Shown: positions 21,394 through 42,330 of the stretch, piece by piece | How the letters are laid out: every line of letters begins with the position of its first letter | How positions within the stretch are numbered: position 1 is the first letter of the stretch | NCBI GenBank assembly: GCA_035938215.1 | Contig: DASZHC010000054.1 | Location: 830 to 64,829, forward strand | DNA length: 64,000 nucleotides | Source of the DNA: Chthoniobacterales bacterium | GTDB lineage: Bacteria > Verrucomicrobiota > Verrucomicrobiia > Chthoniobacterales > JAFAMB01 | Direction: 5' to 3' | Notes under the pieces: model-generated | Databases searched by the model: none | The model's input: only the letters and a program-made list of their open reading frames with translations | What the model was told of the DNA's origin: nothing | Position numbers and translations under genes: made by a program

Positions 21394-22100
21394 TTGTTAA
21401 AAGAGCGTTGGCTTTTGCTAAGCCCGGGAGCTGGTCGGGGTCGATTTGGTGCATTGAAAGAGGATCGCGCCAATGTCAGTCCAGATGAACATCTGCTAAT
21501 TCTATTGGCTGTAGAAAGAGGATTTACGAGTGCGAAGAACGGTGGGAGCAAATGGCAATCAGTATTAGAAATTGTCAACGGCGATCAAGCGCAACGATTG
21601 ACTTGTGGCAATTAATGGCCAACCCATCTGTTGGGATTCTGCGATTTCCGCTCTCATGGATCGGAGTTGGGGCTTTCGATGGAGTGCTGATCCAAATTAC
21701 GCTCTATTTTCTGTAATCCTTATAGACATCTGGATCTATACCCCATTTGTCGTCATCCTGGCGCTCGCCGGTCTGCGTTCCTTGCCGAAATCTCCGTACG
21801 AAGCTGCGCTGATTGATGCGGTTCGGCGTGGTTCGTTTTTCGTAACCTGACGCTGCCGATGCTAGCCCCGGTTTTGTTAATCGCGTTGATTTTCCGGTTG
21901 ATGACTTCCCGCAGGAATTCGCAATTATCTTTGCTTCAACACGCGGCGGTCCAGGAGACCTTACATTAAATGTTGCGATCGCGGCTTATAACCAGGCATT
22001 TCCTTTTTGTAATCTGGCCGGATCGATCCCCATGCTTCTTTTCCTCTGGGCGTTTATTTACGCCGTTTGTTTCATTCTGATCGGCTACTGGAGGAAGGCT
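21394..22100 (+). pseudogene. decayed MalF/UgpA-type ABC sugar permease (several frameshifts)
   Basis: Permease-like segments in three frames: ...DIWIYTPFVVILALAGLRSLPKSPYEAALID..., then LTLPMLAPVLLIALIF, then ...TRGGPGDLTLNVAIAAYNQAF...LLFLWAFIYAVCFILIGYWRK. Confidence 0.55.
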
Positions 22101-22313
22101 CAAATCCGAACCGTTGCCTCTTGCGCGGCGCCAAGGTTCCCTGCCAGAGGTGGTCGACATGTTTGTGGGATTTGCCTCCAGAACGATCAAAAAAAACGAG
22201 CAAAACCTCGCAGAGTGAGCGAAACTAATATTCAATTGGTTTCTTTCAGCGGCCGCCCGTCCGCAGCGTTGTTGGCCCCCCAAAAAAAATCTAACCTTGA
22301 GAGGCTTCACCCG

Positions 22314-23417
22314 ATGGCTTACTTGGAACTGACTAAGATCGAGAAACATTACGACTCGTTTCACGCTCTGAAGAGCATCGATCTTCAGGTTGAAAGAGAG
22401 GAATTCGTCGTCTTTGTCGGACCATCGGGATGCGGAAAGAGTACCCTTCTTCGCTCCATCTGCGGTCTCGAAACGGTCAGTAGCGGCAGAATCGTGCTCG
22501 ATGGCCAGGACATCACCGATATCCATCCATCGAAGCGAAACTTGGCTATGGTGTTCCAAAACTACGCGTTGTTCCCGCACTTAAGCGTCTTTGATAACAT
22601 TGCCTTTGGGCTGCAGTTGCACGGTGTTTCGAAAGACGATATCCGAAAGCGCGTTGAGCGTGCTGCGGCGCTCTTGCACCTGGAGAAAATGCTGGACCGC
22701 AAACCCAAGCAGCTCTCAGGGGGTCAGCGTCAACGGGTCGCCATCGGGCGCTGTATTGTGAAGGCACCAAAATTATTCCTTTTCGATGAGCCGCTTTCCA
22801 ACCTGGATGCCAAGCTTCGAGTACGGATGCGAGTAGAGCTGCTCAACCTGCACTATGAAACTCGTAACACGGTGGTCTACGTTACTCACGACCAAGTGGA
22901 AGCAATGACCATGGCGGATAAAATAGTGGTCTTGCAGGACGGTCGCATCGAACAGTTCGGAAGGCCGATGCTCCTGTACGAACATCCAGTGAACAAGTTT
23001 GTGGCTGGTTTCATTGGATCGCCGCAGATGAACTTTCTCGCCGGCAAGGCCGGTGCTTCGAACCCGAAAGGGATTTCCTGCGCAGTTGACGGGATTGGTA
23101 CGCTTACACTGCCACTGCAGGCGGATGGTTGGAAACTAAACGAATCGATAACGGTCGGCGTGCGACCCGAACATATCGAGCTGGAAGACGGAGTATCGTG
23201 CACTTCGGTTAAGGGAATCGTGAACATTGTAGAGAATCTCGGCGGCGAGACTTACCTGCATGTCGAAATCGCTCCCGGAGCACCACTAATCATGGTCAAG
23301 CTGCACGGTTCACACGGTCCGAACCGTGGAGAACGCGTTACACTCTATCTGCCCGCGGACAGGATTTACCTTTTTGGCGATGAGGGGAACGCTATCCCGG
23401 CGAAGCCGCTAAAATAG
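22314..23417 (+). CDS. ABC sugar-transporter ATP-binding protein (UgpC/MalK/MsmX type)
   Basis: Start at MAYLELTKIEKHY (ATG 22314). GPSGCGKST, LSGGQRQRV, LFLFDEPLS. The upstream part of ORF 22032.. is the permease remnant. Confidence 0.9.
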   Translation: MAYLELTKIEKHYDSFHALKSIDLQVEREEFVVFVGPSGCGKSTLLRSICGLETVSSGRIVLDGQDITDIHPSKRNLAMVFQNYALFPHLSVFDNIAFGLQLHGVSKDDIRKRVERAAALLHLEKMLDRKPKQLSGGQRQRVAIGRCIVKAPKLFLFDEPLSNLDAKLRVRMRVELLNLHYETRNTVVYVTHDQVEAMTMADKIVVLQDGRIEQFGRPMLLYEHPVNKFVAGFIGSPQMNFLAGKAGASNPKGISCAVDGIGTLTLPLQADGWKLNESITVGVRPEHIELEDGVSCTSVKGIVNIVENLGGETYLHVEIAPGAPLIMVKLHGSHGPNRGERVTLYLPADRIYLFGDEGNAIPAKPLK

Positions 23418-23523: not shown

Positions 23524-25038
23524 ATGGCTACGATCTGCGTTGATGTCGGTACCTCGGTCATCAAGACGGTCGCTTTCAACGACCGCGGCACCGAGATCGC
23601 CCTTGCCCGCCAGGAAACGGAAGTGCTGCGTCCCGCACCCGGCTTTTCCGAGCAAGACATGTATTCTGTGTGGGACGCGGCAGCCTTCACGGTCCGCACT
23701 GTTGTAAGCCAACTGTCCGATCCGGTACGCCTTATCTCGCTGACGGCTCAGGGGGATGGTTGCTGGCTGGTGGATGCCGACGGTCACCCTACCGGCCCTG
23801 CAATCCTGTGGAACGACGCGCGGTCCGCCACGATTGTTGATCGCTGGCGAGGGGCAGGCGTATTGAAGGAAGCCTTTCGCTGCAACGGCTCGCAGGCCTT
23901 CGCCGGCCTTCCCAACGCCCTCTTCACCTGGCTCAAGCAACATGATCCCGATCGCATGGAGCGTTCTTACAAGTCGCTCTGCTGCAACGGCTGGATTTTC
24001 TACAATCTGACCGGCCGGATGGCCATCGATGAGTCAGACGCATCCGTGCCATTTTTCGACGTGCGCGAGCGGCGCTATTCCCGCGAACTCCTTCAACTCT
24101 ACGACCTGGAGTGGGCCGAGCGGTTGTTGCCGGATGTACTTGCCAATGACCAGCGCATCGGCGAGCTGCGTTCGGCGGCGGCTGCCGAATTGGGTCTGCC
24201 GGCAGGGCTGCCTGTGGTCATGTCGCCTTATGATGTTGCCTCAACGGCCATCGGTGTCGGCGCGGTCAGCGACGGGCAGGCGTGCAGCATTCTCGGTACG
24301 ACGCTTTGTACTGAGCTTGTTATGGACCACGTCAACCTGGAAGGGGAACCGTCCGGGTTGACTATCCCATTCGGTCCGCCGGGGCTGTACCTGCGCGCCT
24401 TCCCAACCCTGGCCGGGGGCGAGGTTATCCATTGGGCGGTAAGACAGCTTGGTCTCAGCGAGCCATCGGACCTTAGTCAACTGGCTTCCAAAGTCGCGCC
24501 GGGTGCGGGCGGCCTTTGCCTTCTGCCGTACTTTTCTCCCGCCGGCGAGCGCGTACCGTTCCTGAACACTGGCGCCCGCGGCTCGCTTTTCGGGTTGTCG
24601 TTCGAACACGGCCGGGAGCATATCGCCCGAGCGGTGCTCGAAGGATTGTCTCTGGTCATCCGCGATTGTTTGCAGGCATCGCAAGAGGTGCCCTTTCCCC
24701 TACACGTTTGCGGCCTGTGCGGTGGTGGTGCGAAGAGCGAAGTATGGTGTCAACTGATTGCTGACGTCACAGGCACGCCAACCTTTCGCACCGTGGACCA
24801 GGAAGTCGGTGCGAAGGGGGCTTTCATTGCGGGATTGGTCGCCGTGGGCAAAGAGGCGGATTTTTCCAGCGCAACCAAGGATTATCTGCAAATCCGGGAC
24901 ATGTTCGAGCCGCACAAAGAATCGCACGCCCGTTACGATGAGTTGTTCGAGCAATTCCTCGCCATCCGCGAGAACACGTTGCCCATCTGGAAACAGATGG
25001 CGGATGGCGGCGCTCGATTGAGTCCGGCGGCAGCCTGA
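23524..25038 (+). CDS. FGGY-family carbohydrate kinase (substrate unknown)
   Basis: 504 aa. ICVDVGTSVIKTVAF N-terminus, C-terminal GGGAKSEVWCQLIADV. Confidence 0.85.
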   Translation: MATICVDVGTSVIKTVAFNDRGTEIALARQETEVLRPAPGFSEQDMYSVWDAAAFTVRTVVSQLSDPVRLISLTAQGDGCWLVDADGHPTGPAILWNDARSATIVDRWRGAGVLKEAFRCNGSQAFAGLPNALFTWLKQHDPDRMERSYKSLCCNGWIFYNLTGRMAIDESDASVPFFDVRERRYSRELLQLYDLEWAERLLPDVLANDQRIGELRSAAAAELGLPAGLPVVMSPYDVASTAIGVGAVSDGQACSILGTTLCTELVMDHVNLEGEPSGLTIPFGPPGLYLRAFPTLAGGEVIHWAVRQLGLSEPSDLSQLASKVAPGAGGLCLLPYFSPAGERVPFLNTGARGSLFGLSFEHGREHIARAVLEGLSLVIRDCLQASQEVPFPLHVCGLCGGGAKSEVWCQLIADVTGTPTFRTVDQEVGAKGAFIAGLVAVGKEADFSSATKDYLQIRDMFEPHKESHARYDELFEQFLAIRENTLPIWKQMADGGARLSPAAA

Positions 25039-25061
25039 TTTACTTGCAAGGCCCTTTCTTT

Positions 25062-26552
25062 ATGGCATTAAAGCAATCCTCGGACGCTGCCTGGCTCGGA
25101 CTGGATCTCGGCACTCAAAGTGTGCGCGCCATGGTTGTTTCCGGTACCGGCGAGACCTTGGCCGCCGGTTCGCACAAACTGACCAGCCGCCGCAACGGAC
25201 CCCGGCACGAACAGGACCCCGAGGAATGGTGGCGCGCCATCTCAGCCGCTTCCCGAGTGGCTCTTGCTGCGCTGCCTGCCGGCTTGACCATCTATGGTGT
25301 CGCAGTGGATGGCACGTCGGGCACGATCCTGCTTGTTGATGGCGGCGGCCGGCCGTTGACGCCGGGGTTGATGTACGATGACACCCGGGCGTTTGAGGAA
25401 ACCAAACGCGCCAACGAGGCCGGCGCGGCGGTTTGGGCCACGCTGGGCTACAACCGGATGCAGGCGCCTTGGGGTTTGCCGAAATTGCTCTGGCTGTTGG
25501 GTCAACATCGTGGCTTGGCCGCCGGGACGCGCCTGGCGCACCAGACCGATTTTATCAACCGTCGGCTAGTCGGCAGCGAGGTCGCCACGGACACGAGCAA
25601 CGCGCTGAAAACCGGCGTGGACCTGATCAACGAACGCTGGCCGCGCGAGGTGTTCGCCGCGCTTGGAGTGCCCGGCGAAATTCTGCCAGCCGTGGTGCGT
25701 GCCGGGACCGCTCTAGGGGTGGTGAGCGCGGAGGCGGCTACGCAGACGGGCATCCCGCAAGGCACGCCGGTCATCGCAGGCATGACGGACGGTTGTGCGG
25801 CACAGATGGGTGCGGGGGCATTGAGCGTCGGAAGCTGGAACTCCGTGCTGGGCACCACGCTCGTCCTCAAAGGGGTGACGCCCGATCTGATCAAGGACCC
25901 GGCTGGGGTCGTGTATTCACACCGTTCGCCCGATGGCAACTGGCTACCCGGCGGCGCTTCGAGCGCTGGCGCGGGAGTGATCTCCAAGCGTTTCCCCGAG
26001 CGCGATCTGGAAGCGCTCGGGACACAGGCTGCCGAGAGGGAGCCGGCAAGCGTGGTCACCTACCCTCTGCACGGACGCGGTGAACGTTTCCCCTTCATCG
26101 CGCCGGAAGCGGAGGGTTTTACCCTGGGCCGACCCGCCGACGAGATCGACCAGTATGCCGCGCTGCTCCAAGGCGTGGCGTTCATCGAGCGTCTCTGTTT
26201 TGACTACCTGGACATGCTCGGCGCGCCGGTCGGCGGCCCATTCGTGCTCACCGGCGGCGGGGCGAAGAGCCGGTACTGGTGCCAGTTGCGGGCGGACGTG
26301 CTCGGCAGCCCGGTTACCCTGCCGGAGAACGCCGAGGCGGCTTTAGGCATGGCGGTTCTGGCGGCGGCGGCCGGGCGCAAGGTGGCTGACGTTGCCCGCG
26401 CGATGGTGCGCATTCGCGAGGTGATCGACCCGCGCCCGGACCACGCCGGACGCTTCCGCGAGTCGTACCTGCGGCTGGTCGATGAACTCGCCCGTCGGGG
26501 CTGGGAGACGCCAGCCGTCGCGCAACACGCCCACCGGAGGGCCGCCGTGTGA
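25062..26552 (+). CDS. FGGY-family carbohydrate kinase (second, divergent; substrate unknown)
   Basis: LGLDLGTQSVRAMVV N-terminus, TGGGAKSRYWCQLRADV. ATG at 25062 preferred over the TTG at 25044. Confidence 0.85.
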   Translation: MALKQSSDAAWLGLDLGTQSVRAMVVSGTGETLAAGSHKLTSRRNGPRHEQDPEEWWRAISAASRVALAALPAGLTIYGVAVDGTSGTILLVDGGGRPLTPGLMYDDTRAFEETKRANEAGAAVWATLGYNRMQAPWGLPKLLWLLGQHRGLAAGTRLAHQTDFINRRLVGSEVATDTSNALKTGVDLINERWPREVFAALGVPGEILPAVVRAGTALGVVSAEAATQTGIPQGTPVIAGMTDGCAAQMGAGALSVGSWNSVLGTTLVLKGVTPDLIKDPAGVVYSHRSPDGNWLPGGASSAGAGVISKRFPERDLEALGTQAAEREPASVVTYPLHGRGERFPFIAPEAEGFTLGRPADEIDQYAALLQGVAFIERLCFDYLDMLGAPVGGPFVLTGGGAKSRYWCQLRADVLGSPVTLPENAEAALGMAVLAAAAGRKVADVARAMVRIREVIDPRPDHAGRFRESYLRLVDELARRGWETPAVAQHAHRRAAV

Positions 26553-27175
26553 CACACCTCTTCCTCGTTCGCCACGGGGCGACCGTCTGGCACGCTGAGA
26601 ACCGCTATGCCGGCACTTCCGACGTGGCATTGGACCCGGGTGGCTATGCGCAGGCCGAGCGACTTGCCGCATGGGCATCCGAGGCCGGGCTGGCGGCGAT
26701 CTGGTGCTCTCCGCTGAATCGCTCACGCGAAACGGCTGCCCCGGCCGCGCGCGCGGCGGGCCTTGAGCCGCGGATTGACGAACGCCTGCGCGAGATCGAC
26801 TTCGGCCAGATCGAGGGCAAGACCATGGCCGAGGCGGAGCAGCTTTTTCCCGAGGAAATCCGGCGCTTCAAAACCGATCCCGCGACTTATCCGATGCCCG
26901 GCGGCGAAGACCCGCATAAGGCTGCTTGCCGCGGGGTGTCAGCTCTGCGCGACATCGCCGCCGCGCACCCGCACGGGCGCGTGCTGGTCGTCGCGCATAA
27001 CACGCTCATCCGCCTGGCGCTCTGCTCCCTGTTTAGTATTCCGCTGGCGCGTTACCGGACGGTTTTTCCGGGTGTCCGCAATGGTGCGCTGACCGAAATC
27101 GGATTTGAGGATGAAAACGCCGCTCTCCTGCAATACAACTCTCCGCTGGGCACGGCCGGCGGACCACAGACCTAA
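26549..27175 (+). CDS. histidine phosphatase (phosphoglycerate-mutase-like) family protein
   Basis: 208 aa. LVRHGATVWH catalytic RHG motif. GTG start overlaps the upstream stop (GTGA). Confidence 0.85.
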   Translation: MTHLFLVRHGATVWHAENRYAGTSDVALDPGGYAQAERLAAWASEAGLAAIWCSPLNRSRETAAPAARAAGLEPRIDERLREIDFGQIEGKTMAEAEQLFPEEIRRFKTDPATYPMPGGEDPHKAACRGVSALRDIAAAHPHGRVLVVAHNTLIRLALCSLFSIPLARYRTVFPGVRNGALTEIGFEDENAALLQYNSPLGTAGGPQT

Positions 27176-27192
27176 CCTCCCAAACAAACATA

Positions 27193-28242
27193 ATGAACAC
27201 ACGCATCCTTGTCGCCGGCGATCACTTCATCCTGCCTTCCATCTTTGCCGACGCGATTCGCGCCGAAGTGAAGACCGCCATTGAGTTCCGCGAGTATCAA
27301 TCCCCTTGGCCGGGCGTGCCGTTTGGCGAGATCGGTGAGGTCACGGAAGCGTCTGGCTCGGAGGACGAGGTCATCCAGGCTCTTCAAGGGGTGAGCATCT
27401 ATGTGGCAAACCATGCTCCTCTCACGAAGAAAGTTCTCGAAGGCGCGCCCGACCTGAAACTTGCCGTCATTGCTCGCGGAGGTCCGACCAACGCTAACGT
27501 CAAGGCTGCTACCCAGCACGGCGTGCTCGTCTGCAACGCCCCCGGCCGCAACGCCACGGCCACCGCCGAGCACACCATGAGCCTGATCCTCGCGGTTCTG
27601 CGCCGCATTCCCGAAACGCATGCTGCGCTCGCGCTAGGCGAATGGCGCGGCGATTACTACGAATACGACAAGTGCGGGCTGGAGCTGGAAGATTCCACCG
27701 CCGGGTTGATCGGCTACGGCGCGATCGGCACCCGCGTGGCCCGGATGCTCCGCGGCTTCGGGTGTCACGTGCTCGTCTACGATCCCTATGTGAAGCCTGA
27801 GACCTTGGGAGACCTGGCGCAAAATGTCGAACTTAACGAACTGCTCTCCCGCTCACGCATCGTTTCCTTGCACGCGCGGGCCACAACCGAAACCCAGGGC
27901 ATGATCGGCGCGAAACAGCTCGCCGTGATGTCTGCCGGGTCGGTGCTTATCAACTGCGCGCGCGGCACGCTCGTCGATTACAACGCAGTTTGCGACGCGC
28001 TCGACAACGGCCACCTCTGGGGTGCCGGCTTCGACGTGTTTCCCGAAGAGCCGATCCCGGCGGACTCGCGCCTGCTGACAACTCCGCACATCGTGATGAC
28101 GCCTCACGTTGCGGGTGCCAGCAAGCAGACCGCCGAGAGAGCCGCGCAGATCGCCGCCGGTGAGGTTCGCCGCTTCCTTCACGGTGAACCGCTCGAACAC
28201 TGCATCAACCCGGAAGCCGCCGCCGGCAAATCTGCCCGGTAA
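27193..28242 (+). CDS. D-isomer-specific 2-hydroxyacid dehydrogenase (PGDH-like), NAD-binding
   Basis: 349 aa. GLIGYGAIGTRVARML Rossmann motif. NCARG...D and TPHVAG patterns. Confidence 0.85.
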   Translation: MNTRILVAGDHFILPSIFADAIRAEVKTAIEFREYQSPWPGVPFGEIGEVTEASGSEDEVIQALQGVSIYVANHAPLTKKVLEGAPDLKLAVIARGGPTNANVKAATQHGVLVCNAPGRNATATAEHTMSLILAVLRRIPETHAALALGEWRGDYYEYDKCGLELEDSTAGLIGYGAIGTRVARMLRGFGCHVLVYDPYVKPETLGDLAQNVELNELLSRSRIVSLHARATTETQGMIGAKQLAVMSAGSVLINCARGTLVDYNAVCDALDNGHLWGAGFDVFPEEPIPADSRLLTTPHIVMTPHVAGASKQTAERAAQIAAGEVRRFLHGEPLEHCINPEAAAGKSAR

Positions 28243-28275: not shown

Positions 28276-29121
28276 CTACTTAATCGCTCCGGCCGTGAGA
28301 CCGCGGACCAGTTGACGCGAGACGATCATGCTAAATATGATCACCGGCATGGCCACCAAGGTGCCCGTGGCCATAATCTGGCCCCAAGGCAGTTCATAGC
28401 CGCTCATGAAGCTTGTGGCGACGACCGGCGCGGTCTTGGCCTCGGTTCTTGTCAGTATCAGGGCGTAGAGCAACTCGTTCCAGGAGAAGATAAAACTGAA
28501 GATTGCCGAGACAGCGAGTGCGGGTGTGGCCAGCGGCAGCGCAATCTTTAAAAATATCGCAAACGAGTTGTAGCCTTCGAGTGTCGCTGCCTCGTCCAAC
28601 TCTTTTGGAATATTGCGGAACTGGTCAGCACAGATCCAGACCACGATTGGCACGTTGAACGTGAGGTAAATGAGGATAAGTGCCCACGTCGTATCCAGGA
28701 GTCTGAAGTTGCGGGCGATGAGAAAAAACGGGAGCGCCACAACGATCGGACTGAGCATTCGGTTCGAGATAAACCAAAACCAGATGTCCCGCTTCCCTTT
28801 AAACTCGAACCGGGCAATCGCGTAGGCGGCCGGCGTTCCGAGCACCAGCGAAATCAGGACTGTCACCAAAGCGACAAACAACGAGTTCTGCAGGCTCTTT
28901 AGAATGTCGAACTTGCTAAAGGCGTTCACATAGTTTTCCAACGTCGGTTGGAAAAGGAATTGAGGGGTCGATGCGAGGATCGCCGGTTGCTGCTTGAAGG
29001 ACGCCGTGACCATCCAGTAAAACGGGAAAACGCAAACCAATATTACCAAAAGCAGGGCCACGAAGTGGAGTATGTCGTCAAGTTGCAGGCCCTTTCTTCG
29101 CCTAGATTCGCTTGTTTTCAT
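28276..29121 (-). CDS. ABC sugar-transporter permease (UgpE/MalG type)
   Basis: 281 aa, multi-TM. EAA-loop region DEAATLEGYNSFAIFLKIALP. Confidence 0.85.
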   Translation of the reverse strand: MKTSESRRRKGLQLDDILHFVALLLVILVCVFPFYWMVTASFKQQPAILASTPQFLFQPTLENYVNAFSKFDILKSLQNSLFVALVTVLISLVLGTPAAYAIARFEFKGKRDIWFWFISNRMLSPIVVALPFFLIARNFRLLDTTWALILIYLTFNVPIVVWICADQFRNIPKELDEAATLEGYNSFAIFLKIALPLATPALAVSAIFSFIFSWNELLYALILTRTEAKTAPVVATSFMSGYELPWGQIMATGTLVAMPVIIFSMIVSRQLVRGLTAGAIK

Positions 29122-29126
29122 GGTCT

Positions 29127-30050
29127 TCAGATCTCCTTGTAAACGTACTTCACATAAAGGCGGGATAGAATGGTAGCAATGATCAACAACACCACAGCCT
29201 GTGCCGAAGCCATCCCCTGGTCGAAAACGCGGAAGCCGATACGTTGTATATACACGCTTATGAGTTCAGTAGCCGAACCGGGTCCCCCGCGAGTCATCGT
29301 ATAAACGACGTCAAACAGCTTAAGAATATCCGCAGTTCGTAGAATCAGGATTACGGTTATGCCGGGCAGCATGAACGGGAGTTGTACCTTCCAGAGTATA
29401 TGCCACCATTTTTCCGTTTCGAGGCGAGCCGCTTCTTCAATTTCGAGCGGGACCATCGTCAGGCTCGAAAACAAGATCAGGGCGCAGAACGGGGTCCATT
29501 GCCAGTCTTCCATTATCGAGATGGAAACGAAGGCGAGGTCCGGATCAGCCAGCCAATCAAGCTTATGCGCAAAAATCAGGCTCCAGAAATAGTTTAACAC
29601 CCCAAAGTCCAGATTGAACATGAGCCGGCCCGACAGCCCTACGACAGCGAAGGTGGTGGCCAGAGGAATGACCAGCGCAACTCGACCTATCTTCTTCAAG
29701 AGCTCATTTCCGGGTCTATGCAAAAGCAACGCAATCGCCAGCCCGAGCGCCAACTGAATCGGCAAGTTGACAACGAGGAAAAGCAAGGTTCGACCGAGCG
29801 CTTCCCGGAAGGATTGGTCCGTGAGAAGCGCCAGGTAGTTTCCGAACCAGTTAAAAGGCGCGTCGAAGAGCGGCCAGATCCCCAAAAAACTCCCCTGCGA
29901 ATGGACTTTCGGCAAGATAAACTGGTGCAATGAGTTCCAGACCGCAAAGAGCAGAGGAAAAATCCCCACGAAGAACAATACAATCACCGCCGGGGCAAGG
30001 AAGTACCAGGCCCCGGGAGAGTAGGTTTTCTTTCCTGTATTCGCTTTCAT
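29127..30050 (-). CDS. ABC sugar-transporter permease (UgpA/MalF type)
   Basis: 307 aa, multi-TM. EEAARLETEKWWHILWKVQLP EAA loop. Confidence 0.85.
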   Translation of the reverse strand: MKANTGKKTYSPGAWYFLAPAVIVLFFVGIFPLLFAVWNSLHQFILPKVHSQGSFLGIWPLFDAPFNWFGNYLALLTDQSFREALGRTLLFLVVNLPIQLALGLAIALLLHRPGNELLKKIGRVALVIPLATTFAVVGLSGRLMFNLDFGVLNYFWSLIFAHKLDWLADPDLAFVSISIMEDWQWTPFCALILFSSLTMVPLEIEEAARLETEKWWHILWKVQLPFMLPGITVILILRTADILKLFDVVYTMTRGGPGSATELISVYIQRIGFRVFDQGMASAQAVVLLIIATILSRLYVKYVYKEI

Positions 30051-30193: not shown

Positions 30194-31534
30194 TCATTGT
30201 GCCAACGGCTTCTTACCGTTGTAATAGCCGGCTTTCTTGAGTGTGTCCTCCACCAGTTTGCAAATCTGCGCCGATGCCTGCTTTACAGTCGATTGTCCAT
30301 CCATCATCTTGGTGCCCCACTCGGCGATGATGTCTGAGAGCTGGGGCCATTCTGCGAACCGGGGGCGAAACTCTGGCACACCCTGCTGCCAGGATTCGAC
30401 CATTGGAGCAATGAATGGGTATTTTGCCACCAGTTCTTTGTCTTGGTAGGTCGATTGGCGCCCGCTGACACCGCCGTTTTCCACATACTCCTTCGCCTTG
30501 GCTTTGGATGTTACCCACTGGATGAATAGCCAGGCAGCTCCTTTTTTCTTATCATCGACCTGAGTCGTCACAGCGAGCGAGAATCCGCCGAGCGCGGGTT
30601 TACGGCCGTCCGGACCCTTCGGTTCGGGTGCAATCCCGAGCGAATTGACGATTTTCGAAGTCTTCGGGTCGACCAGTGTCTGATAAAACGCTGACCACTC
30701 GGTGATCATCGCAACCTGACCTTGGGCGAGGGCATTGACTGCCTCGCTGTGGTCGAAGTCCACGATGCCCGGCGGCATGTATTTCATCAGCCTTAAACGG
30801 AACTCGAGTCCCGCTTGCGTTTTCGGATCCGAGAGGTTGCACTTGAAATTAGAATCGAGCAGAGAGCCGCCCCAAGGCCAGATGAAACGCATGAAGCTAT
30901 CGCAAGATTGCGTCTCGCCGCGCCGCGACTGCAATGCGAACGCGTACTTGCCGTCCTTTGTGAGCTTCGGAGCGTAGTCGTTAATAAGTTGGTCCCACGT
31001 TTCTGGCGGCTTATCGAAGCCGGCCGCTTTCAGCATGTCTTTGTTGTAATAGAGGAGACCTGAATAGTTATCGAAAGGTAATCCGTAAGTTTTACCGTTC
31101 CAGGTGCCAAACGCGTTCAATAACAGCGGGAAGAAGTCTTTTAGATCCAGGTCGGGATCAACCAGGTTCGGAAACTTCTTTTGCAGATCGTCGATCGGGA
31201 CAATCCAGCCGGATTCGGCGTATTCACCGATCCAGACAAGGTCCACGAGCGCAATCGCTAGGTCGCCCTGTGCGCTAAAGTCCAGGACTTCTTTTTCACG
31301 ACTGTTCTCGTACGGAACGATCTCATAGGACACTTTGATGCCAGTCTTCTGCTCGAATTCCGGCAACATCTTGATCGCCGCCCTGTAACCCGGACGATCG
31401 AGGAATATCACCTTGATCTCTGTTCCTTTGTAATCCTTCGCCGCTTCCTCGAGGGACCAGGCTTGAGCAACGCTCAGGCCGACCGACGAGAAGGCAACTC
31501 CAACACATAACATGCAGAGGAATTTCTTCTTCAT
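30194..31534 (-). CDS. ABC transporter extracellular solute-binding protein (family 1, sugar type)
   Basis: 446 aa. Signal peptide MKKKFLCMLCVGVAFSSVGLSVAQA. First gene of the SBP-permease-permease run. Confidence 0.85.
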   Translation of the reverse strand: MKKKFLCMLCVGVAFSSVGLSVAQAWSLEEAAKDYKGTEIKVIFLDRPGYRAAIKMLPEFEQKTGIKVSYEIVPYENSREKEVLDFSAQGDLAIALVDLVWIGEYAESGWIVPIDDLQKKFPNLVDPDLDLKDFFPLLLNAFGTWNGKTYGLPFDNYSGLLYYNKDMLKAAGFDKPPETWDQLINDYAPKLTKDGKYAFALQSRRGETQSCDSFMRFIWPWGGSLLDSNFKCNLSDPKTQAGLEFRLRLMKYMPPGIVDFDHSEAVNALAQGQVAMITEWSAFYQTLVDPKTSKIVNSLGIAPEPKGPDGRKPALGGFSLAVTTQVDDKKKGAAWLFIQWVTSKAKAKEYVENGGVSGRQSTYQDKELVAKYPFIAPMVESWQQGVPEFRPRFAEWPQLSDIIAEWGTKMMDGQSTVKQASAQICKLVEDTLKKAGYYNGKKPLAQ

Positions 31535-31854: not shown

Positions 31855-32199
31855 TTACCTCCCTTCCGCTGGGGCTGCTGTTGATCCCCGAACATGGAGC
31901 GGGGAATTGATCACATTGCTCGGAGCCTTATTGGCAAAGCGCTCTTTCTCGTTGATCCGCTGAAGCAATAACTCCACCGCCTTCCCGCCAATATTCGGAA
32001 TAACGAACCCGACGGAATGTGTTGTCCGTAGCCGTAGACTTCTCGCGCCGAGGTTCACCCGATAACTCAACGCGGCAATCGCCCGCTCAGCGTTTTGCGC
32101 GGTGCCCGGCGAAACCGGCGCGCTATGTTCGATGTAGTGCGATACAGTGCTCGGTGCGACACCGGCGAGTTTCGCGACGCTTAGGATGGTAGCCTCCAT
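31855..32199 (-). pseudogene. truncated LacI-family regulator (HTH domain only)
   Basis: 114 aa. TILSVAKLAGVAPSTVSHYI...ALSYRVNLGARSLR...SVGFVIPNI is the LacI N-terminus. The roughly 250-aa sugar-binding domain is missing, and I see no LacI-like frames downstream. Confidence 0.6.
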
Positions 32200-32809: not shown

Positions 32810-34927
32810 ATGCTTGGCATGGCTTCGGATTTGCAAGCCTCTCCTTCTTCCTTGGCACGGAACTCTCTTATCGAGTACCTGAGCATCCCGCGCGAACTCG
32901 CGTGGGGCTATGTCGGCCTGTTGCTGTTCATGATGGGGGACGGGGTGGAGTCAGGGTACCTGGCTCATTACCTTCACGGCGAGGGGATTTCCCAGGGAAA
33001 AATCGCGTTGATATTCACGGTTTATGGCGCGTTCGCGACAATGGGGGGTCGCTATTCGGGCGCTTTGGCCGATGTGTGGGGACCGCGTTTGGTGATGTGG
33101 ATCGGTCTTCTGACCTGGACCGCATTCCAGATCGTCTTTTTGGGCTTCTCGCTCCCGACGGGTAATTTCCCTGCCCTGCTCGTGAGCTACGGGCTCCGGG
33201 GCTTTGGCTACCCGCTGTTTGCCTACGGCTTCCTGGTTTTGATTACGAACGTTACTCCGTCGAAGCGGCTCGGATCCGCCGTTGGATGGTTTTGGTTTGC
33301 TTTCAGCGCAGGACTGCCGACCTTGGGTGCTTTTGTTGCTAGTCTGCTCATTCCTCACGTCGGCGAGTACGTGACCTTCTGGTGTTCGCTTGCGATGGTG
33401 ATTGCCGGCGGTGTTGTCGCTCTTTCGGGACTGCCAAGAAGAGCCGGCCTATCTGCGCCGGGCGCGCCTCAAAAGAAGACGCGCGATTCACTTTTCTCCA
33501 GCTTTTCGATTGCCTGGAAAAAGCCAAAGACGGCGATTGGCTGTGTCGTGCGCATGATCAACACCGCCCCGCAATTCGGTTTCTTGGTATTCTTGCCAAC
33601 TTTTTTCACAACCGATGTCGGATTGCATCTTAGCCAATGGCTGCAGTTGCTGAGCTATATGTTCCTGAGCAACATGGTTGCGAGCCTGTTGTCGGGAATC
33701 GTTGGGGACAAACTCGGTTGGCGGCATACGGTTGCCTATGTTGGCGGGATGGGTTGCACGATCACGACGCTTCTGCTTTACTACGTGCCAGTTGCACACC
33801 GGGGAAATTTCGTGTTGGCCGTCGTGGTTGCCGTTCTTTACGGGGCAACCCTTGCTGGCTACGTCCCGCTCACCGCCATCATGCCACTCTTGGCGCCGGA
33901 CAACAAAGGTGCGGCCATCTCGATGCTAAACCTCGGGGCGGGGGCAAGCGCTCTGCTTGGTCCGGCGATCGTTGGCGTCTTCATTGGGCCGCTTGGGGTT
34001 GAAGGGGTGATGTGGATCTTCGCCGGGCTTTATGGGCTCAGTGCGTTGCTGGCTCTGTTCCTGACGTTGCCGGACGAAGTGGAACGCGGGACCCTTGGGT
34101 GGAGTGGCATTGGCGAGGCAGCGTTTGGCGCGTCTGCGGGTCTGCTGGACCATCCCCCGGCGATGGCTGCTCTGGCGGGCCAGCACGACATCGATCTGGT
34201 GCTGTTTGACCTGGGGGGGACAATTTATGACGACTCAACTTACACGAGGGCGTTGCTCCGGGCCGTTCACGAGATTGATCCGAAGGCCCAGGAACAGGAA
34301 TTCTGGGCGGTTTATGATGCCGAACGGATGAAGGCGTCGGGTTCGTTGCGCACTGCCATCGCGAACCATTTTGTTCCTAATCGGGATCGCGAGAGGCTGA
34401 CGACCCTCGCAAAGGTCTACTGGGAATACCCAGCGTCGGCCCTTTATCCGGATGTGAAACCTGCGTTGAAAGCGCTGGCTGACCACTTCAAATTGGGCCT
34501 AGTAGCAAACTCGGGTGAGGCGGCTCTTAAGGCGTTGCGACGGGACGGTATCGAGGACCTTTTTGCCGTCATTGCCCTCGCAGACTTCGTTGGGGTGGAA
34601 AAGCCCGATGAGAGGATCTTCCAATACGCCCTGAAAACCGCCGGCGTTTCGCCGAGCCGCGTGGTGCATGTGGGTAACCGTCTCGAGAGCGACATCCGAC
34701 CGGCTCAGCGATTGGGAATGCGGACCGTGTGGCTGTTGCGCGGCGACGCTCCTCCGGCGCCAACCTTGGACCAATTGGTTGAACCGGATGCCGTGATCAC
34801 TTCGCTCCTGGGTTTGCCGACGGCATTATCAAGGTTAACGGGCGGCAAGGAGCTTAAGTCATCCTCAGCAACTTCTGCGGTTAAGGATCTTTCGGAAGCT
34901 CGTAAGGAGCGCATCAAAGCTTTGTAA
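32810..34927 (+). CDS. MFS transporter fused to a C-terminal HAD-superfamily domain
   Basis: 705 aa. About 440 aa of TM-rich MFS sequence, then IDLVLFDLGGTIYDD ... LGLVANSG ... VEKPDERIF ... HVGNRLESD (HAD motifs I-IV, with non-canonical I and IV). Confidence 0.8.
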   Translation: MLGMASDLQASPSSLARNSLIEYLSIPRELAWGYVGLLLFMMGDGVESGYLAHYLHGEGISQGKIALIFTVYGAFATMGGRYSGALADVWGPRLVMWIGLLTWTAFQIVFLGFSLPTGNFPALLVSYGLRGFGYPLFAYGFLVLITNVTPSKRLGSAVGWFWFAFSAGLPTLGAFVASLLIPHVGEYVTFWCSLAMVIAGGVVALSGLPRRAGLSAPGAPQKKTRDSLFSSFSIAWKKPKTAIGCVVRMINTAPQFGFLVFLPTFFTTDVGLHLSQWLQLLSYMFLSNMVASLLSGIVGDKLGWRHTVAYVGGMGCTITTLLLYYVPVAHRGNFVLAVVVAVLYGATLAGYVPLTAIMPLLAPDNKGAAISMLNLGAGASALLGPAIVGVFIGPLGVEGVMWIFAGLYGLSALLALFLTLPDEVERGTLGWSGIGEAAFGASAGLLDHPPAMAALAGQHDIDLVLFDLGGTIYDDSTYTRALLRAVHEIDPKAQEQEFWAVYDAERMKASGSLRTAIANHFVPNRDRERLTTLAKVYWEYPASALYPDVKPALKALADHFKLGLVANSGEAALKALRRDGIEDLFAVIALADFVGVEKPDERIFQYALKTAGVSPSRVVHVGNRLESDIRPAQRLGMRTVWLLRGDAPPAPTLDQLVEPDAVITSLLGLPTALSRLTGGKELKSSSATSAVKDLSEARKERIKAL

Positions 34928-35020: not shown

Positions 35021-35773
35021 TCAGGTCGCTAGAAATCCACCGTCTATTGGAAGGGCCAATCCATTGAGCATCGCTGCGGCATCGCTCAGCAGGAAGCAAA
35101 CCACCGACGCTATATCCTCACACTCCGCAAATCGGCCCAATGGAATTCGCTGAAGCATCGGTCCCCCTTTTTCAGGATCACTCCACGCCCGTTTCCCCAT
35201 TTCAGTCAATACGACTGTGGGATTTACAGAGTTAACGCGAATGCCATGTTTGCCAAGCTCCACGGCCATCACTTTGGTCAACTGGTCCAGCCCAGCCTTG
35301 GAAGCGCAATAGGCAGCATGTTTTTCGAGTGCCTGAAATGCCGCCATACTGGAAACGTTCACAATTGAACCTCGAATACCGCGCTCAATCATTTGGGCGG
35401 CGATCACCTGTGAAATGATAGCGACCGATCTTAGATTCACCGCCATCGTTAGATCCCATGCCTCAACGGTGGAGGTGAGAAAAGGCTGCAGAATCGCTAT
35501 GCCGGCGTTGTTCACGAGAAGATCAACGTCCCCCGCCGACTCCGCTGCTCGCTTCGCGGACACGGGATCGGCAAGGTCCGCGATGATCGTTTCGCAACCG
35601 ATCTCTTCCTTGAGGCTTCGAAGGTCTTTCTCGGTTCTGCTGAGTGCGATGACTCGCGCATTAAAGCGAGTCAGCATGCCGGCGATTTCTCTGCCAATTC
35701 CCTTTCCGGCACCGGTAACAAGTGCACGTCGATTCTTAAAGTCGATTTGATGAACGATGGGATCGAGTTTCAT
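35021..35773 (-). CDS. short-chain dehydrogenase, L-xylulose reductase / carbonyl reductase (DCXR)-like
   Basis: 250 aa. LVTGAGKGIGR, LLVNNAG, IVNVSS, YCASKAGLD, RVNSVNPTVV, RIPLGRFAE, FLLSD. From memory these are near-identical runs to animal DCXR. Confidence 0.8.
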   Translation of the reverse strand: MKLDPIVHQIDFKNRRALVTGAGKGIGREIAGMLTRFNARVIALSRTEKDLRSLKEEIGCETIIADLADPVSAKRAAESAGDVDLLVNNAGIAILQPFLTSTVEAWDLTMAVNLRSVAIISQVIAAQMIERGIRGSIVNVSSMAAFQALEKHAAYCASKAGLDQLTKVMAVELGKHGIRVNSVNPTVVLTEMGKRAWSDPEKGGPMLQRIPLGRFAECEDIASVVCFLLSDAAAMLNGLALPIDGGFLAT

Positions 35774-36527: not shown

Positions 36528-36688
36528 TGCGGCGAGTTATAAGCAGGAGGCATCCCGCCGCCCGCGAGTTGGTTGATTTTCAAGCCACGAACGACGAGCA
36601 TATCTAAACCGGATATGCTCCTCAGGTACGTCTCGCATACGGATCCTTTTGAAGCCAACGGTATAGCTCCTATTTATGACTCGATGTA
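36528..36688. mobile_element. family B MITE-like element, internally deleted form (copy B2)
   Basis: Both termini and flanking modules align with B3. About 107 bp of the B3 centre is absent. Central hairpin GAGCATATC-N7-GATATGCTC. Confidence 0.65.
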
Positions 36689-37185
36689 CCAGCCCCTGGG
36701 TTTTTGTTTTGGTCGTCTTGTTGCTTGTGGTGGGTTTTGCCCCGCGTTCAAGCGGCGAAATGATTGATCAACGTAACTTTGCGATTGATACCTATTTTCC
36801 TGGGCCGAATGAAATCCGTTTGGCCGGGCAACGAGCGCGGAACTATTGGGCGAAGAATGCGAATCGTTATGGCTCCAATCCGGTTTATCTTGCTGTCGAA
36901 ACTTCAAAGATTTTCGAAAGCGAAATTGTGCAGGATCTTTGGCCCAAGTTGATAAAGTCGCAAACAACAAGCTCCTTTTTCTCTAAGTCGCCGGGGAGAC
37001 ATCACACCGAAGCCGACTTAAAGGGAATCATGATTTTTGATACCCGCACCGGGACCGTTGTAGGTAATCGGGGCTTCGTTTTGGTCGATACTCCTAGCCG
37101 CGGGCGCGTCGCTCGGTTTGGCGATTACGTTGCCCGGTACATCGGCACTGGGCGGTCCTTCCCTGGGATTGTTGGTGGAAACTGA
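36676..37185 (+). CDS. hypothetical exported protein
   Basis: 169 aa. N-terminal hydrophobic segment VFVLVVLLLVVGFA. The ATG and first codons lie inside the right terminus of repeat B2. I recognise no family. Confidence 0.5.
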   Translation: MTRCTSPWVFVLVVLLLVVGFAPRSSGEMIDQRNFAIDTYFPGPNEIRLAGQRARNYWAKNANRYGSNPVYLAVETSKIFESEIVQDLWPKLIKSQTTSSFFSKSPGRHHTEADLKGIMIFDTRTGTVVGNRGFVLVDTPSRGRVARFGDYVARYIGTGRSFPGIVGGN

Positions 37186-37313: not shown

Positions 37314-38261
37314 TCAGTGAAATCCGAGGCTTAGAAGATTGACGACTTTTCCGATGTTTTCCGATGTTACAAGACTTGGGCCGGTGAGAATAAAATCATT
37401 CTGCAGGATCGAGCCGTACCTGATGTAGTTGGCGAGAAATACAATGGGGAGATAACCTTGCAACCATTCCTGTTGGTCAATCGCAAATTCGATTTGCTTC
37501 TTCGCGAGGGCGGCCATGACAGCCGGAGAAATGTCGAATGTGCATAGTTTGATCTGGCCCATTTTTCCGAGCTGAACGATGGTTGCCAAAGCCGGTTCAG
37601 CAGCTGTTGAGCCGAGAGCCATAATCCCGTCGACATTCTGGTTCCTCTGCAAATAGTCGCGAACCAGATTCTGGCATTCTCCGAAATCCATTTTGACCGC
37701 GAGAACCTGAACGTGATGAAACGGACCTTCGAACCCTGCCCGGAAGCCTTTAATTCGCTGTTCAAGCCCAAAATTTCCAACCTCCTGGTTTAAAATGATG
37801 GCTTCCTTGACTCCCATTGCTTTCATCTTTTGACCCGCTTTGCGACCTGCGGCTCCCTCATCTTGACCGATGTACATGAGACACCCGAGTTGGCGGGATA
37901 CCTCCAACCCGGAGTTAATCGAGATCACAGGAATTTTTGCAGCGACCGCAGCCTTTATGGATCTTGATAATGCGGCAGCGTCGGGAATCGACACGACGAG
38001 GGCATCGGGTTTGGATGCGACGGCTTCATCGATTAGTTGCGCCATTGCCTGCACATCAAATTTCTCAGGAGCACGATATTCAACGTCGCTGCCCGTTTCT
38101 TCGGTGGCAATTTCTACGCCGTTTCTGACAATCAACCAAAATGAGTCCGCGGCCTGGCCATGGGTCACCACGATGATCCTGGGTTTTGTTAGCGCGTGGG
38201 AGACGAGAGGAGTGAGGAGAGCCACGGCCAATGCCAGCCACAACTTGAATCTCGGATTCAT
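37314..38261 (-). CDS. periplasmic sugar-binding protein (RbsB-like, PBP type 1); no cognate permease or ATPase adjacent
   Basis: Start at [16 protein letters not shown] (signal peptide). The ATG overlaps the glpK2 stop (TGATG at 38259-38263). Confidence 0.8.
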   Translation of the reverse strand: MNPRFKLWLALAVALLTPLVSHALTKPRIIVVTHGQAADSFWLIVRNGVEIATEETGSDVEYRAPEKFDVQAMAQLIDEAVASKPDALVVSIPDAAALSRSIKAAVAAKIPVISINSGLEVSRQLGCLMYIGQDEGAAGRKAGQKMKAMGVKEAIILNQEVGNFGLEQRIKGFRAGFEGPFHHVQVLAVKMDFGECQNLVRDYLQRNQNVDGIMALGSTAAEPALATIVQLGKMGQIKLCTFDISPAVMAALAKKQIEFAIDQQEWLQGYLPIVFLANYIRYGSILQNDFILTGPSLVTSENIGKVVNLLSLGFH

Positions 38262-39754
38262 CAGGGGAGGTTCGCGTGGATATCCGGCCTCGTACCATGT
38301 AAAACCTTGCTCCATCCGGAGCGCAACGATTCGCGCCGGTCCTGACTCATGCGCGGAGTGAAAGTTTCGCCAGCCTTCCATTGGGAGCTGATCTCCCCAG
38401 TCGATTTGAAGTAGCCCACGCCCAGACCCGCCAGGTAAGCGGCACCCATTGCCTTTGTTTCATCATTCTTCGGGCTGACGACAGGAACCCCGAGTATGTC
38501 CGCTTGAAACTGCATGAGCAGTTTGTTCTTGCAGGCGCCACCATCGACGCGCAGGTCGGAAAGCTGGATGCCGGAATCGGATTCCATCGCCGTGAGGATA
38601 TCCGTCACCTGATAGGCAATACTTTCAAGGGCTGCGCGAGCGATGTGGCCAGCCTTTGTGCTTCGCGTCAAGCCAACGATCCGTCCCTGTGCATACGGAT
38701 CCCAATAAGGGGCCCCCAAACCGGCAAAGGCGGGCACAAAATAGACGCCTCCGTTGTCCTTCACCGTAGCGGCGAGTTGTTCAACTTCGTCAGCCGATCG
38801 GATGATTCCCAATCCGTCCCGTAACCACTCAACCACAGCGCCTGCGCTGAAGACGCTGCCTTCGAGGGAATACTCGGTTTTGTGATTAATTCGCCAGGAA
38901 ACAGTCGTAACCAATTTGTTCTTTGAAACGATCGGCTGTGACCCCGTGTTCATGAGCATGAAACAACCGGTACCATAGGTATTCTTCACCATTCCCGGCC
39001 GGTTACACATGTGGCCAAAAAGCGCAGCCTGCTGATCCCCGGCATTTCCGGCGATTGGGATTCCGCGAAGCCCTGTTGTCACCTCGCCATAAATTTCGCT
39101 GGAACCTCTAATTTCTGGCAACAGCAGCCTTGGAATACCGAGCGCGTTGAGAAGGTGATCATCCCAACTATGCGTACGAATGTTATAGAGCATTGTTCGA
39201 GACGCATTCGTTTCGTCTGTGCAGTGGCACCGACCCCCCGTGAGTTTCCAGATCAGCCAGGAGTCGATCGTTCCAAAGGCCAGTTCACCCCTCTCAGCGC
39301 GCTCCCGGGCGCCAGGGACGTGATCCAGAAGCCAACGAACTTTCGTGCCGGAAAAATACGCATCGATCATAAGCCCGGTTTTTCGCTGAATAAACGGCTC
39401 CAAACCGTCGGCTTTCATCGTTTCGCACATGGGCGACGTCCGACGATCCTGCCAAACGATCGCGTTAGCAATCGGCTGCGAGGTTTGCCGATCCCAAATC
39501 ACCGATGTTTCGCGTTGATTGGTAATGCCGACGGCAGCAATATTCTCGGGCCCGATGTTTGCCTGACGCAATGCTTGAGTAGCGACACCGATTTGGGCCG
39601 ACCAGATTTCGTTGGGATCATGTTCCACCCAACCCGGGTGCGGATAAATCTGGGTGATTTCCTTCTCTGCGACCGAAACCTTTTGACCGAGATAATCCAC
39701 CACCAGTGCGCGAGCGTGCGTAGTGCTTTGATCAAGAGCGAGAAGATATTTCAT
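38261..39754 (-). CDS. glycerol kinase paralogue (copy 2, divergent phosphate-1 loop)
   Basis: 497 aa. Collinear with copy 1 at roughly 70% identity by eye, but has [10 protein letters not shown] where copy 1 has [13 protein letters not shown] overlap with the dhaM stop. Confidence 0.9.
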
Positions 39755-42252: not shown

Positions 42253-42330
42253 TCGATAACGGATGCTATGCGCGCTCCAGGTCGCAAGCGACCGGGAACG
42301 CTTCGGTTAGTTGATTCTACTTTGATCCTA

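Follow-up and report, generated by a model that had tools for sequence, protein, structure and literature searches.

RbtT and DalT, the ribitol and D-arabinitol:H+ symporters of Klebsiella, belong to the RbtT/DalT/CsbX family of polyol permeases. In the 64,000 nucleotides of Chthoniobacterales DNA analyzed here (contig DASZHC010000054.1; this whole stretch is called "the window" below), one gene encodes a protein of 705 amino acids whose N-terminal 420 residues form a full-length member of that family, with 12 helices and with polyol dehydrogenase and kinase genes as neighbors; relative to the characterized permeases, however, it adds a C-terminal extension of 280 residues that consists of a linker, a domain of the HAD fold and a tail. 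On comparative sequence grounds, and with a probability that we place slightly below even, we favor the idea that the HAD part, as a pseudoenzyme or one of slow turnover, senses a metabolite and gates the uptake of polyols, where both the binding and the gating are things that we infer.

Other transporters with cytoplasmic domains offer partial parallels. The ABC importers MetNI (C2/ACT-like domain) and ModBC carry C-terminal trans-inhibition domains; the logic proposed here would be like theirs, in that a fused cytoplasmic domain would bind accumulated solute and lock transport, but the window protein differs from them in transporter class and in regulatory fold. P-type ATPases have a P domain of the HAD fold with the motif I sequence DKTGT, and they have in common with the window protein the fold, a nucleophile Asp, a non-acidic residue at Asp+2 and physical coupling to a membrane transport domain. 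In the ATPases, however, the Thr of motif II and both Asp residues of motif IV are retained and there are N and A domains as well, whereas the window HAD is attached to the end of a secondary transporter. Finally, the aquaglyceroporin-arsenate reductase fusions (Wu, Song and Beitz 2010), as summarized in PMC9775063, are channel-enzyme fusions that the summary calls rare; they too have a small cytoplasmic enzyme-fold domain on the C-terminus of a facilitator. According to the same summary, theirs has been proven to be an active enzyme and makes the substrate that the channel exports, whereas the window protein has an incomplete catalytic set and a setting of catabolic uptake.

The features of the fusion protein are as follows:
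32810..34927, plus strand: MFS-HAD fusion open reading frame (ORF), 705 aa (Pfam and NCBIfam domain matches, uninterrupted frame)
32879..34066, plus strand: MFS domain of the RbtT/DalT/CsbX polyol-permease family, residues 24-419, 12 helices (TIGR00897)
34142..34165, plus strand: linker motif L445-L-D-H448-P-P-A-M452 (conserved across MFS-HAD proteins and the MIP channel-HAD proteins described below)
34181..34840, plus strand: HAD-IA fold domain with C1 helical cap, residues 458-677 (PF00702, PF13419, PF13242; AlphaFold2 (AF2) model; Foldseek)
34205..34222, plus strand: motif I, F-D467-L-G469-G-T471, residues 466-471 (aligns to FDLDDT of 3vay and 2hoq)
34226..34234, plus strand: subfamily signature Y473-D474-D475, directly after motif I (invariance across architectures)
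34502..34510, plus strand: motif II position, V565-A566-N567 (solved HADs have ITN, IITD or IVTS here in the alignment)
34595..34609, plus strand: motif III, V-E-K598-P-D, residues 596-600 (alignment)
34673..34693, plus strand: motif IV, G622-N623-R-L-E-S-D628, residues 622-628 (aligns to VGD)
34841..34927, plus strand: poorly conserved C-terminal tail, residues 678-705, and stop codon (homologue gaps, low pLDDT)

Both parts of the protein are recognized by Pfam and NCBIfam models, and the 705 codons run without a stop or a change of frame, in agreement with a preliminary description of this DNA that had read a single 705-aa ORF joining an MFS to a HAD domain. Of the possible starts, Met4 (nt 32819) is better conserved, being present in at least 90% of homologues. 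Fourteen contigs on record carry exactly this 705-aa sequence (the longest is 51.8 kb), 118 of the 120 top homologues (56-89% identity) contain both the MFS and the HAD Pfam domains, and the fusion is seen in at least 125 homologue clusters. With one genome scanned per GTDB species, HAD-domain relatives turned up in 301 species; among the best 80 loci, 32 species genomes encode the fusion. Since so many homologue clusters and these 32 species genomes carry both domains, the fusion is real and old. The carriers belong to the Verrucomicrobiota (including Chthoniobacterales), Ktedonobacteria (Dictyobacter), Actinomycetota and Dormiibacterota, with metagenome-assembled genomes among those of Chthoniobacterales, Dictyobacter and Dormiibacterota, and with Streptomyces luteolus (WP_349017154.1), Modestobacter marinus, Hoyosella altamirensis (DSM 45258) and Pseudonocardia spinosispora as cultured representatives; the architecture is frequent in soil metagenomes and actinomycete genomes. 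It is named "polyol permease family/HAD superfamily hydrolase" by JGI and only "RbtT/DalT/CsbX family MFS transporter" by NCBI.

A full-text literature search found no description of an MFS-HAD or MIP-HAD protein, and no curated NCBIfam family covers the HAD part of the window protein or of ten relatives: the best-scoring curated HAD model, TIGR02253 (CTE7), gives 97.0 bits against a cut-off of 169.75 (75-140 bits for the ten relatives), and we rejected assignment of the domain to any curated family. The preliminary description knew of no described example, which seems to hold for the literature; the architecture itself is frequent and automatically named, and the possibility raised there that it is a common, already annotated family is thus half borne out, the HAD part having no curated family. 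The transporter family and the HAD fold are ordinary, and the fusion is already in databases under automatic names; what appears to be undescribed is the HAD subfamily with its signature, its four architectures, the His linker that two of them share and the link to an uncharacterized catabolic module.

The MFS part matches TIGR00897 with 504.6 bits (cut-off 375), residues 24-419 aligning with positions 3-401 of the model's 401, and Pfam MFS_1 over residues 36-354 with 126 bits, above its gathering score; we therefore predict from sequence that it is a proton-coupled polyol importer of the RbtT/DalT/CsbX family. Genes for a short-chain dehydrogenase (SDR), FGGY kinases, Dak1/Dak2 and glycerol kinase nearby provide a polyol context. 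In the full-length AF2 model (pLDDT 79.8, pTM 0.58) the MFS part has 12 long helices with block pLDDT of about 79-96. The central MFS loop (208-238) contains 7 K/R, and because it is so rich in these residues both MFS termini should be cytoplasmic; the 12 helices and this loop together put the HAD domain on the cytoplasmic side. Across the linker (residues 425-457) pLDDT stays under 50, which with the pTM of 0.58 means that the placement of the HAD cleft relative to the transporter mouth is not predicted. At the other end, most homologues are gapped over the last ~20 residues of the tail (686-705), and pLDDT is below 50 for 679-701.

Within the linker lies a motif with the consensus L-[L/H]-[G/A]-H-x-[P/A/T]-x-[M/L], 17-21 residues N-terminal of the HAD nucleophile and with an invariant His. 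It is found in 117 of 121 MFS-HAD and 48 of 49 MIP-HAD proteins and is absent from the stand-alone and PP2C-linked HAD forms. Since the motif is common to two unrelated membrane folds, linker and HAD domain seem to act on them as one cassette, in which the LLDHPPAM stretch might serve as plug, latch or membrane anchor.

The HAD part matches Pfam above gathering scores (Hydrolase and HAD_2 at 461-641, Hydrolase_like at 597-667), with 78.8 bits for PF00702 (cut-off 26.4) and 59.4 bits for PF13419. Modeled alone by AF2 it has pLDDT 93.2 and pTM 0.88, and Foldseek relates it with probability 1.00 to HAD-IA structures, the top matches being C1-cap members. Fold and cap are like those of the solved C1-cap HAD-IA proteins 3vay, 4ygq, PH1655 (2hoq), PH0459 (1x42), NANP/HDHD4 and YfnB (Foldseek E 1e-11 to 1e-14, TM 0.6-0.72; profile sequence E down to 1e-25), and the nucleophile Asp, the Lys and the second motif IV Asp are in common; the window domain differs from them in its Gly, Ala and Asn replacements and its extra YDD, ALRRDG and WLLRG[ED]APPxP. 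Searches by sequence, profile and Foldseek found no solved structure of the subfamily but only generic HAD-IA neighbors at 18-30% identity, among them both phosphatases (3vay, 4ygq, NANP, YfnB) and Mg-independent hydrolases (L-DEX, cis-epoxysuccinate hydrolase).

We positioned the catalytic motifs on an alignment of 120 homologues compared with solved HADs, and counted residues over 125 MFS-HAD sequences. The motif I nucleophile D467 is present in all 125, as is G469 in place of the general acid/base at Asp+2, and the motif does not read DxDx(T/V). The Thr/Ser that 3vay, 4ygq and 2hoq have in motif II is A566 in 123/125, so that the position has no hydroxyl residue; the motif III Lys, K598, is kept in 123/125; and in motif IV the first Mg2+-ligand Asp is N623 and the second acidic residue D628, each in 124/125, which leaves the Mg2+-binding acidic pair incomplete. 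Thus three of the five canonical catalytic positions have been replaced, essentially invariantly, and as a transporter-fused enzyme the domain gives mixed signals, the nucleophile and Lys being kept. Mean column conservation (top-residue frequency) is 0.78 in the HAD part and 0.76 in the MFS part; being as conserved as its partner, the HAD domain is under selection and not decaying. These positions agree with the earlier reading of FDLGGT at nt 34205-34222 (Asp kept, Gly at Asp+2), of the Lys in VEKPD and of GNRLESD with Asn for the first Asp; that reading also took motif II to be present in LVANSG, but Ala566 aligns with the Thr/Ser of solved HADs and the motif must therefore be counted as replaced.

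The Y473-D474-D475 signature would correspond to the "squiggle" region of the HAD fold. Some of these changes extend beyond the subfamily: an outer clade of small HAD-IA proteins (FDxG[GS]T / [IVL]-A-N-Q / K-P / GDRLDxD) already has Gly at Asp+2 and Ala in motif II and keeps the motif IV Asp. Since the outer clade retains GDRLDxD, it is the Asp-to-Asn change that sets the inner subfamily apart.

When the HAD domain alone was searched exhaustively against 1.84 billion representatives with phmmer, only 26 clusters came up at E<=1e-30. The subfamily occurs in four architectures, MFS-HAD, MIP-HAD, HAD-GAF-SpoIIE(PP2C)-HATPase_c_2 and stand-alone, all of which share DxGG, YDD, A-N, K-P, G-N-R-L-x-x-D, ALRRDG and WLLRG[ED]APPxP. 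YDD is present in 125/125 MFS-HAD, 55/55 MIP-HAD, 12/12 PP2C-linked and 33/34 stand-alone proteins (the last has Ser at D474). In an unbootstrapped, quick neighbor-joining (NJ) tree the stand-alone forms are basal, the MIP-HADs of Ktedonobacteria fall within the MFS-HAD clade and the actinobacterial MIP-HADs stand apart, a topology that implies at least two recruitments to MIP channels. One further protein of 624 aa (P0325) has an N-terminal SDR fragment (~145 aa) followed by the C-terminal half of an MFS domain and the HAD domain; the usual neighbor of the fusion is an SDR gene. We rejected it as an SDR+MFS+HAD triple-fusion architecture, and it is probably a rearranged or deletion product or a miscalled gene.

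MIP-HAD proteins carry the HAD domain at the C-terminus of an aquaglyceroporin-type channel, and they occur in at least 55 clusters from Ktedonobacteria and Actinomycetota. Like the window protein they have this HAD subfamily (45-71% identity), the His linker, the C-terminal placement and glycerol or polyol kinase neighbors; they differ in having a channel in place of the MFS permease and in often having lost the nucleophile or Lys. The nucleophile is Ala or Ser in 12/55 (22%) and the motif III Lys is lost in 23/55 (42%; kept in 32/55), and nevertheless YDD (55/55), Asn623 (54/55), Arg624 (55/55) and Asp628 (54/55) are retained. Because these proteins lose catalytic residues and keep the signature, the shared function of the subfamily does not need covalent HAD catalysis. 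MFL5664229.1 (Ktedonobacteraceae) and MBP8920972.1 (Micropruina) are examples, annotated only as "aquaporin" or "glycerol uptake facilitator"; in this analysis the group is labeled P0121 and P0270-P0330, with loci L005-L007, L069 and L082.

The HAD-GAF-SpoIIE(PP2C)-HATPase_c_2 proteins (~826 aa) come from 12 Streptomyces species and are called merely "HAD-IA family hydrolase" by NCBI; P0125 (WP_240123416.1) is an example, WP_240118906.1 (Streptomyces sp. MUM 2J or MUM 203J) is another, and the Streptomyces loci are L037, L057, L075-L081 and L084-L086. PPM phosphatases carry diverse N-terminal sensor domains (PMC12143880), and the input domains listed there include PAS, receiver, GAF and HAMP, with HAD not among them. 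These Streptomyces relatives, though not the window protein itself, share the sensor(s)-PP2C-kinase-like layout of partner-switching PPM/PP2C phosphatases such as RsbU, RsbP and OsaC (PMC12143880), and a HAD domain as PP2C input seems to be undescribed. The stand-alone proteins are ~220-240 aa long and come from Saccharopolyspora, Actinopolyspora and others.

All four HAD architectures lie beside FGGY sugar-kinase genes. The neighboring genes in the window are:
22032..23417, plus strand: ABC ATPase (MalK-type), first gene of the co-located module (Pfam ABC_tran, OB_MalK, TOBE_2)
23524..25038, plus strand: FGGY sugar kinase "A" (Pfam FGGY_N/C; best NCBIfam match XylB, 279.8 bits, cut-off 380)
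25044..26552, plus strand: FGGY sugar kinase "B" (of the kinase types, the one with the tightest linkage to the HAD subfamily)
26549..27175, plus strand: histidine-phosphatase/phosphomutase family protein (Pfam His_Phos_1)
27193..28242, plus strand: D-2-hydroxyacid dehydrogenase family protein (Pfam 2-Hacid_dh, 2-Hacid_dh_C)
28276..30050, minus strand: two ABC sugar permease genes, 281 aa and 307 aa (Pfam BPD_transp_1)
30194..31534, minus strand: ABC solute-binding protein, 446 aa (Pfam SBP_bac_1)
35021..35773, minus strand: short-chain dehydrogenase, convergent with the fusion (Pfam adh_short; GolD/DthD 233 bits, cut-off 286), probably a polyol dehydrogenase

The four genes at 23524-28242 form a module whose content is conserved from Verrucomicrobiota to Streptomyces, Hoyosella and Modestobacter, as is its order except in one locus (L031). 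None of the four products (FGGY_A, FGGY_B, His_Phos_1, 2-Hacid_dh) reaches a curated NCBIfam equivalog cut-off; identification of the pathway through curated kinase and dehydrogenase models failed for this reason, and the FGGY-FGGY-HisPhos-2-hydroxyacid-dehydrogenase module is probably an uncharacterized polyol or tetrose/pentose pathway. The full module is found beside MFS-HAD, PP2C-linked and, in part, stand-alone HAD genes and not beside MIP-HAD genes, whose operons are of the glycerol type and encode either an FGGY kinase and GlpD or an NAD-G3P dehydrogenase and a SorC regulator. In Actinomycetota it is directly 3' of MFS-HAD (L001, L027, L029-L033), and in Streptomyces loci a MalK-type ABC ATPase gene is likewise 5' of it. 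At least five Streptomyces HAD-PP2C genes directly follow the module (L077-L079, L081, L084), and in three Streptomyces genomes it lies between MFS-HAD and HAD-PP2C (L035/L084, L036/L081, L037). Other Verrucomicrobia have Dak1-Dak2 upstream of MFS-HAD and the ABC trio downstream (L004, L009, L012-L016, L020), and an ABC solute-binding protein gene adjoins MFS-HAD in 12 of 32 loci.

A kinase like FGGY_B is encoded within 10 kb of the stand-alone HAD genes in 32/34 loci. In Actinopolyspora the genes for an RbtT-family MFS protein (463.7 bits), a HAD protein and FGGY_B follow one another in one orientation, with the FGGY_B start overlapping the HAD stop by 4 nt, and this operon is the unfused version of the MFS-HAD pairing. 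Its MFS and HAD ORFs are in the same frame with one stop codon between them in three genomes; a split fusion or readthrough was ruled out there (L045, L053, L058), as the genes are separate, with a ~250-nt spacer and without the His linker.

Elsewhere in the window, a 114-aa ORF (31855-32199, minus strand) that lies between the ABC operon and the fusion encodes only a LacI-type HTH plus the initial strand of the ligand-binding domain; as only 320 nt are left before the next gene, it is the remnant of a truncated regulator. An unfused MIP channel (20526-21275, minus strand) means that the organism carries both a plain MIP and the MFS-HAD protein. A second C3 locus at 38261-44370 (minus strand) encodes GlpK (764.8 bits), a DhaM-like EIIA(Man)-HPr-EI triple fusion (833 aa), Dak2 and Dak1, with a TetR regulator (44451-45083) just downstream. 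A Peripla_BP_4 binding protein at 37314-38381 (minus strand) has a sub-threshold match to a rhizopine solute-binding protein model; its longest ORF overlaps the end of glpK (38261-39754, minus strand) by 121 nt, and its true start is probably a downstream Met ahead of a signal-peptide-like stretch. The 1.5-kb gap between the SDR and this gene contains a 169-aa ORF (36676-37185, plus strand) with a hydrophobic N-terminus and no Pfam match.

In the sensing model that we favor, a HAD fold would have been turned from a phosphatase into a regulatory module, joined to the cytoplasmic end of the permease through the His linker. Its cleft would bind a cytoplasmic metabolite of the polyol pathway, which would be the polyol that was taken up or else the phosphorylated compound that the linked FGGY kinase makes, and the cap would close over this ligand; via the linker, the ligand-bound HAD would then slow or lock the transporter, and such feedback (trans-)inhibition would prevent over-accumulation of polyol or sugar phosphate. 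On the PP2C protein the HAD domain would give transcriptional or partner-switching control. Because Asp467 and Lys598 are kept and the residues needed for turnover (Asp+2, the motif II Thr/Ser and the first motif IV Asp) are gone, binding or at most very slow single-turnover chemistry may be expected. A metabolite-binding module seems the most economical explanation since three catalytic residues are lost, the other two can be lost in a sister branch, the PP2C relatives have the domain in a sensory-input position and the associated polyol pathways contain kinases. The same HAD domain is present on two unrelated membrane folds with a common His linker, and by analogy the PP2C relatives place it where PPM phosphatases carry sensory input domains. 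Of the two roles that the preliminary description suggested, coupled uptake and processing or a ligand-sensing regulatory domain, it is the latter that appears to fit this comparative evidence best.

Several considerations weigh against this model. The MFS-HAD nucleophile Asp is retained in 125/125 and 32/32 and Lys598 in 123/125 and 32/32, and a purely non-catalytic binder would not obviously need both. Acidic side chains are conserved at +7/+8 (YDD in the window protein; outer-clade proteins have D/N-E) and could be a stand-in for the general acid, as could Asn567 for the motif II hydroxyl, which would make the domain an active non-canonical enzyme. Loss of the nucleophile or Lys is limited to the actinobacterial MIP-HAD branch and one stand-alone protein, and may not be transferable to the window protein. 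In the AF2 model the MFS and HAD domains make no contact that is predicted with confidence. The locus counts are phylogenetically non-independent, many of them coming from Saccharopolyspora and Streptomyces, and "FGGY_A" and "FGGY_B" are best-match labels relative to the window's own proteins and not proven orthology.

In a wider form of the sensing model, for which we would still give a less than even chance, the HAD subfamily is an unrecognized portable small-molecule input domain that serves an MFS permease, a MIP channel and a PP2C/anti-sigma-kinase-type protein, all of them sensing one metabolite of the FGGY-FGGY-HisPhos-2-hydroxyacid-dehydrogenase pathway. In the strongest version of this idea, Asp467 and Lys598 without the turnover residues would make a single-turnover "receptor-enzyme" or a phospho-aspartate switch that gates a secondary transporter; the latter would be formally like the P domain of P-type ATPases or a receiver domain.

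The alternative that survives best, although we consider it unlikely, is an active phosphatase of non-canonical type whose substrate would be a polyol- or ketose-phosphate belonging to the pathway. As a relief valve, it would remove the phosphate from a toxic sugar phosphate that builds up, beside an exit route, and the protein would be a true transporter-enzyme fusion. Essentially every MFS-HAD, stand-alone and PP2C-linked member retains Asp467, Thr471, Lys598 and Asp628, and E. coli YihX is an active phosphatase despite Gly at Asp+2. The stand-alone proteins of the outer clade have the same Gly and Ala changes, and their residues at +7/+8 are acidic and conserved, which suggests that the general acid has moved and not that the site has decayed; Asn567 is a possible replacement for the motif II hydroxyl. 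The 4-nt overlap of the stand-alone HAD gene with FGGY_B in Actinopolyspora is what a pathway enzyme might show, and the MIP-arsenate reductases are a precedent among channel-enzyme fusions (PMC9775063). However, three catalytic positions, a Mg2+ ligand among them, have changed together, the nucleophile is missing in 22% and the Lys in 42% of MIP-HADs that keep the other signature residues, and the same domain is the N-terminal module of a PP2C/anti-sigma-kinase-type signaling protein. A phosphatase encoded with the kinases of its own pathway would also create a futile cycle, and the module already has a His_Phos_1 phosphatase or mutase.

It is improbable, in our estimation, that the HAD domain is a docking platform or scaffold that binds no small ligand and brings the FGGY kinase to the transporter or channel mouth, where incoming polyol would be trapped metabolically by immediate phosphorylation. 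The linkage of FGGY_B-like kinase genes to 32 of 34 stand-alone HAD loci, the HAD/FGGY_B overlap in Actinopolyspora and the presence of the fusion on two different uptake proteins would all fit such a role, but the most conserved residues are those of the active-site region (D467, GG, YDD, N567, K598, NR..D), which indicates a ligand in the cleft rather than a surface interface, and many verrucomicrobial MFS-HAD loci are near Dak-type kinases and not FGGY kinases.

We think it very improbable that the domain is an L-2-haloacid-dehalogenase-type hydrolase that cleaves a C-X bond of an imported substrate; the preliminary description had likened motif I to the DxYGT style of such members. The non-Asp residue at Asp+2 and the motif IV Asn are as in Mg2+-independent HAD hydrolases, and Foldseek matches L-DEX, azetidine-2-carboxylate hydrolase and cis-epoxysuccinate hydrolase at TM 0.6-0.64; phosphatase-type HADs (3vay, 4ygq, NANP, YfnB), however, score equally or better, and the TIGR01428 match of 64.6 bits lies below the cut-off of 125.4. 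The L-DEX residues at issue in motifs I and II are D10, T14 and S118; in the window protein motif I is DLGGT without the Tyr of DxYGT, and the Ser that binds the substrate carboxylate is replaced by Ala566. Gly at Asp+2 was rejected as a mark of dehalogenases, since it is a trait of the wider clade of small HAD-IA proteins, and the neighboring genes are all related to polyols or sugar phosphates and none to halo-acids. Lastly, that two adjacent genes were joined through a frameshift or a lost stop, for which the preliminary description had wanted the junction checked, is barely conceivable and was ruled out even though separate adjacent MFS and HAD genes do occur in Actinopolyspora, given the identical product on 14 contigs, the fused form in more than 125 clusters and 32 species genomes, and the conservation of the linker motif itself.

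To our knowledge, the post-translational control of bacterial secondary transporters and aquaglyceroporins is poorly understood, and most known cases use separate proteins such as EIIAGlc and GlnK. If the sensing model is true, soil bacteria would avoid polyol or sugar-phosphate overload by means of a self-contained feedback sensor on an MFS permease and a MIP channel. If the HAD domain were instead an active enzyme, this would be a second natural class of transporter-enzyme fusion, and such fusions are considered rare (PMC9775063). As a sensor, the domain would represent a new sensory class, with HAD as a PP2C input, and it would provide a handle on an uncharacterized polyol catabolic module that is widely distributed in Verrucomicrobiota and Actinomycetota, the industrial Saccharopolyspora and Streptomyces among the latter.

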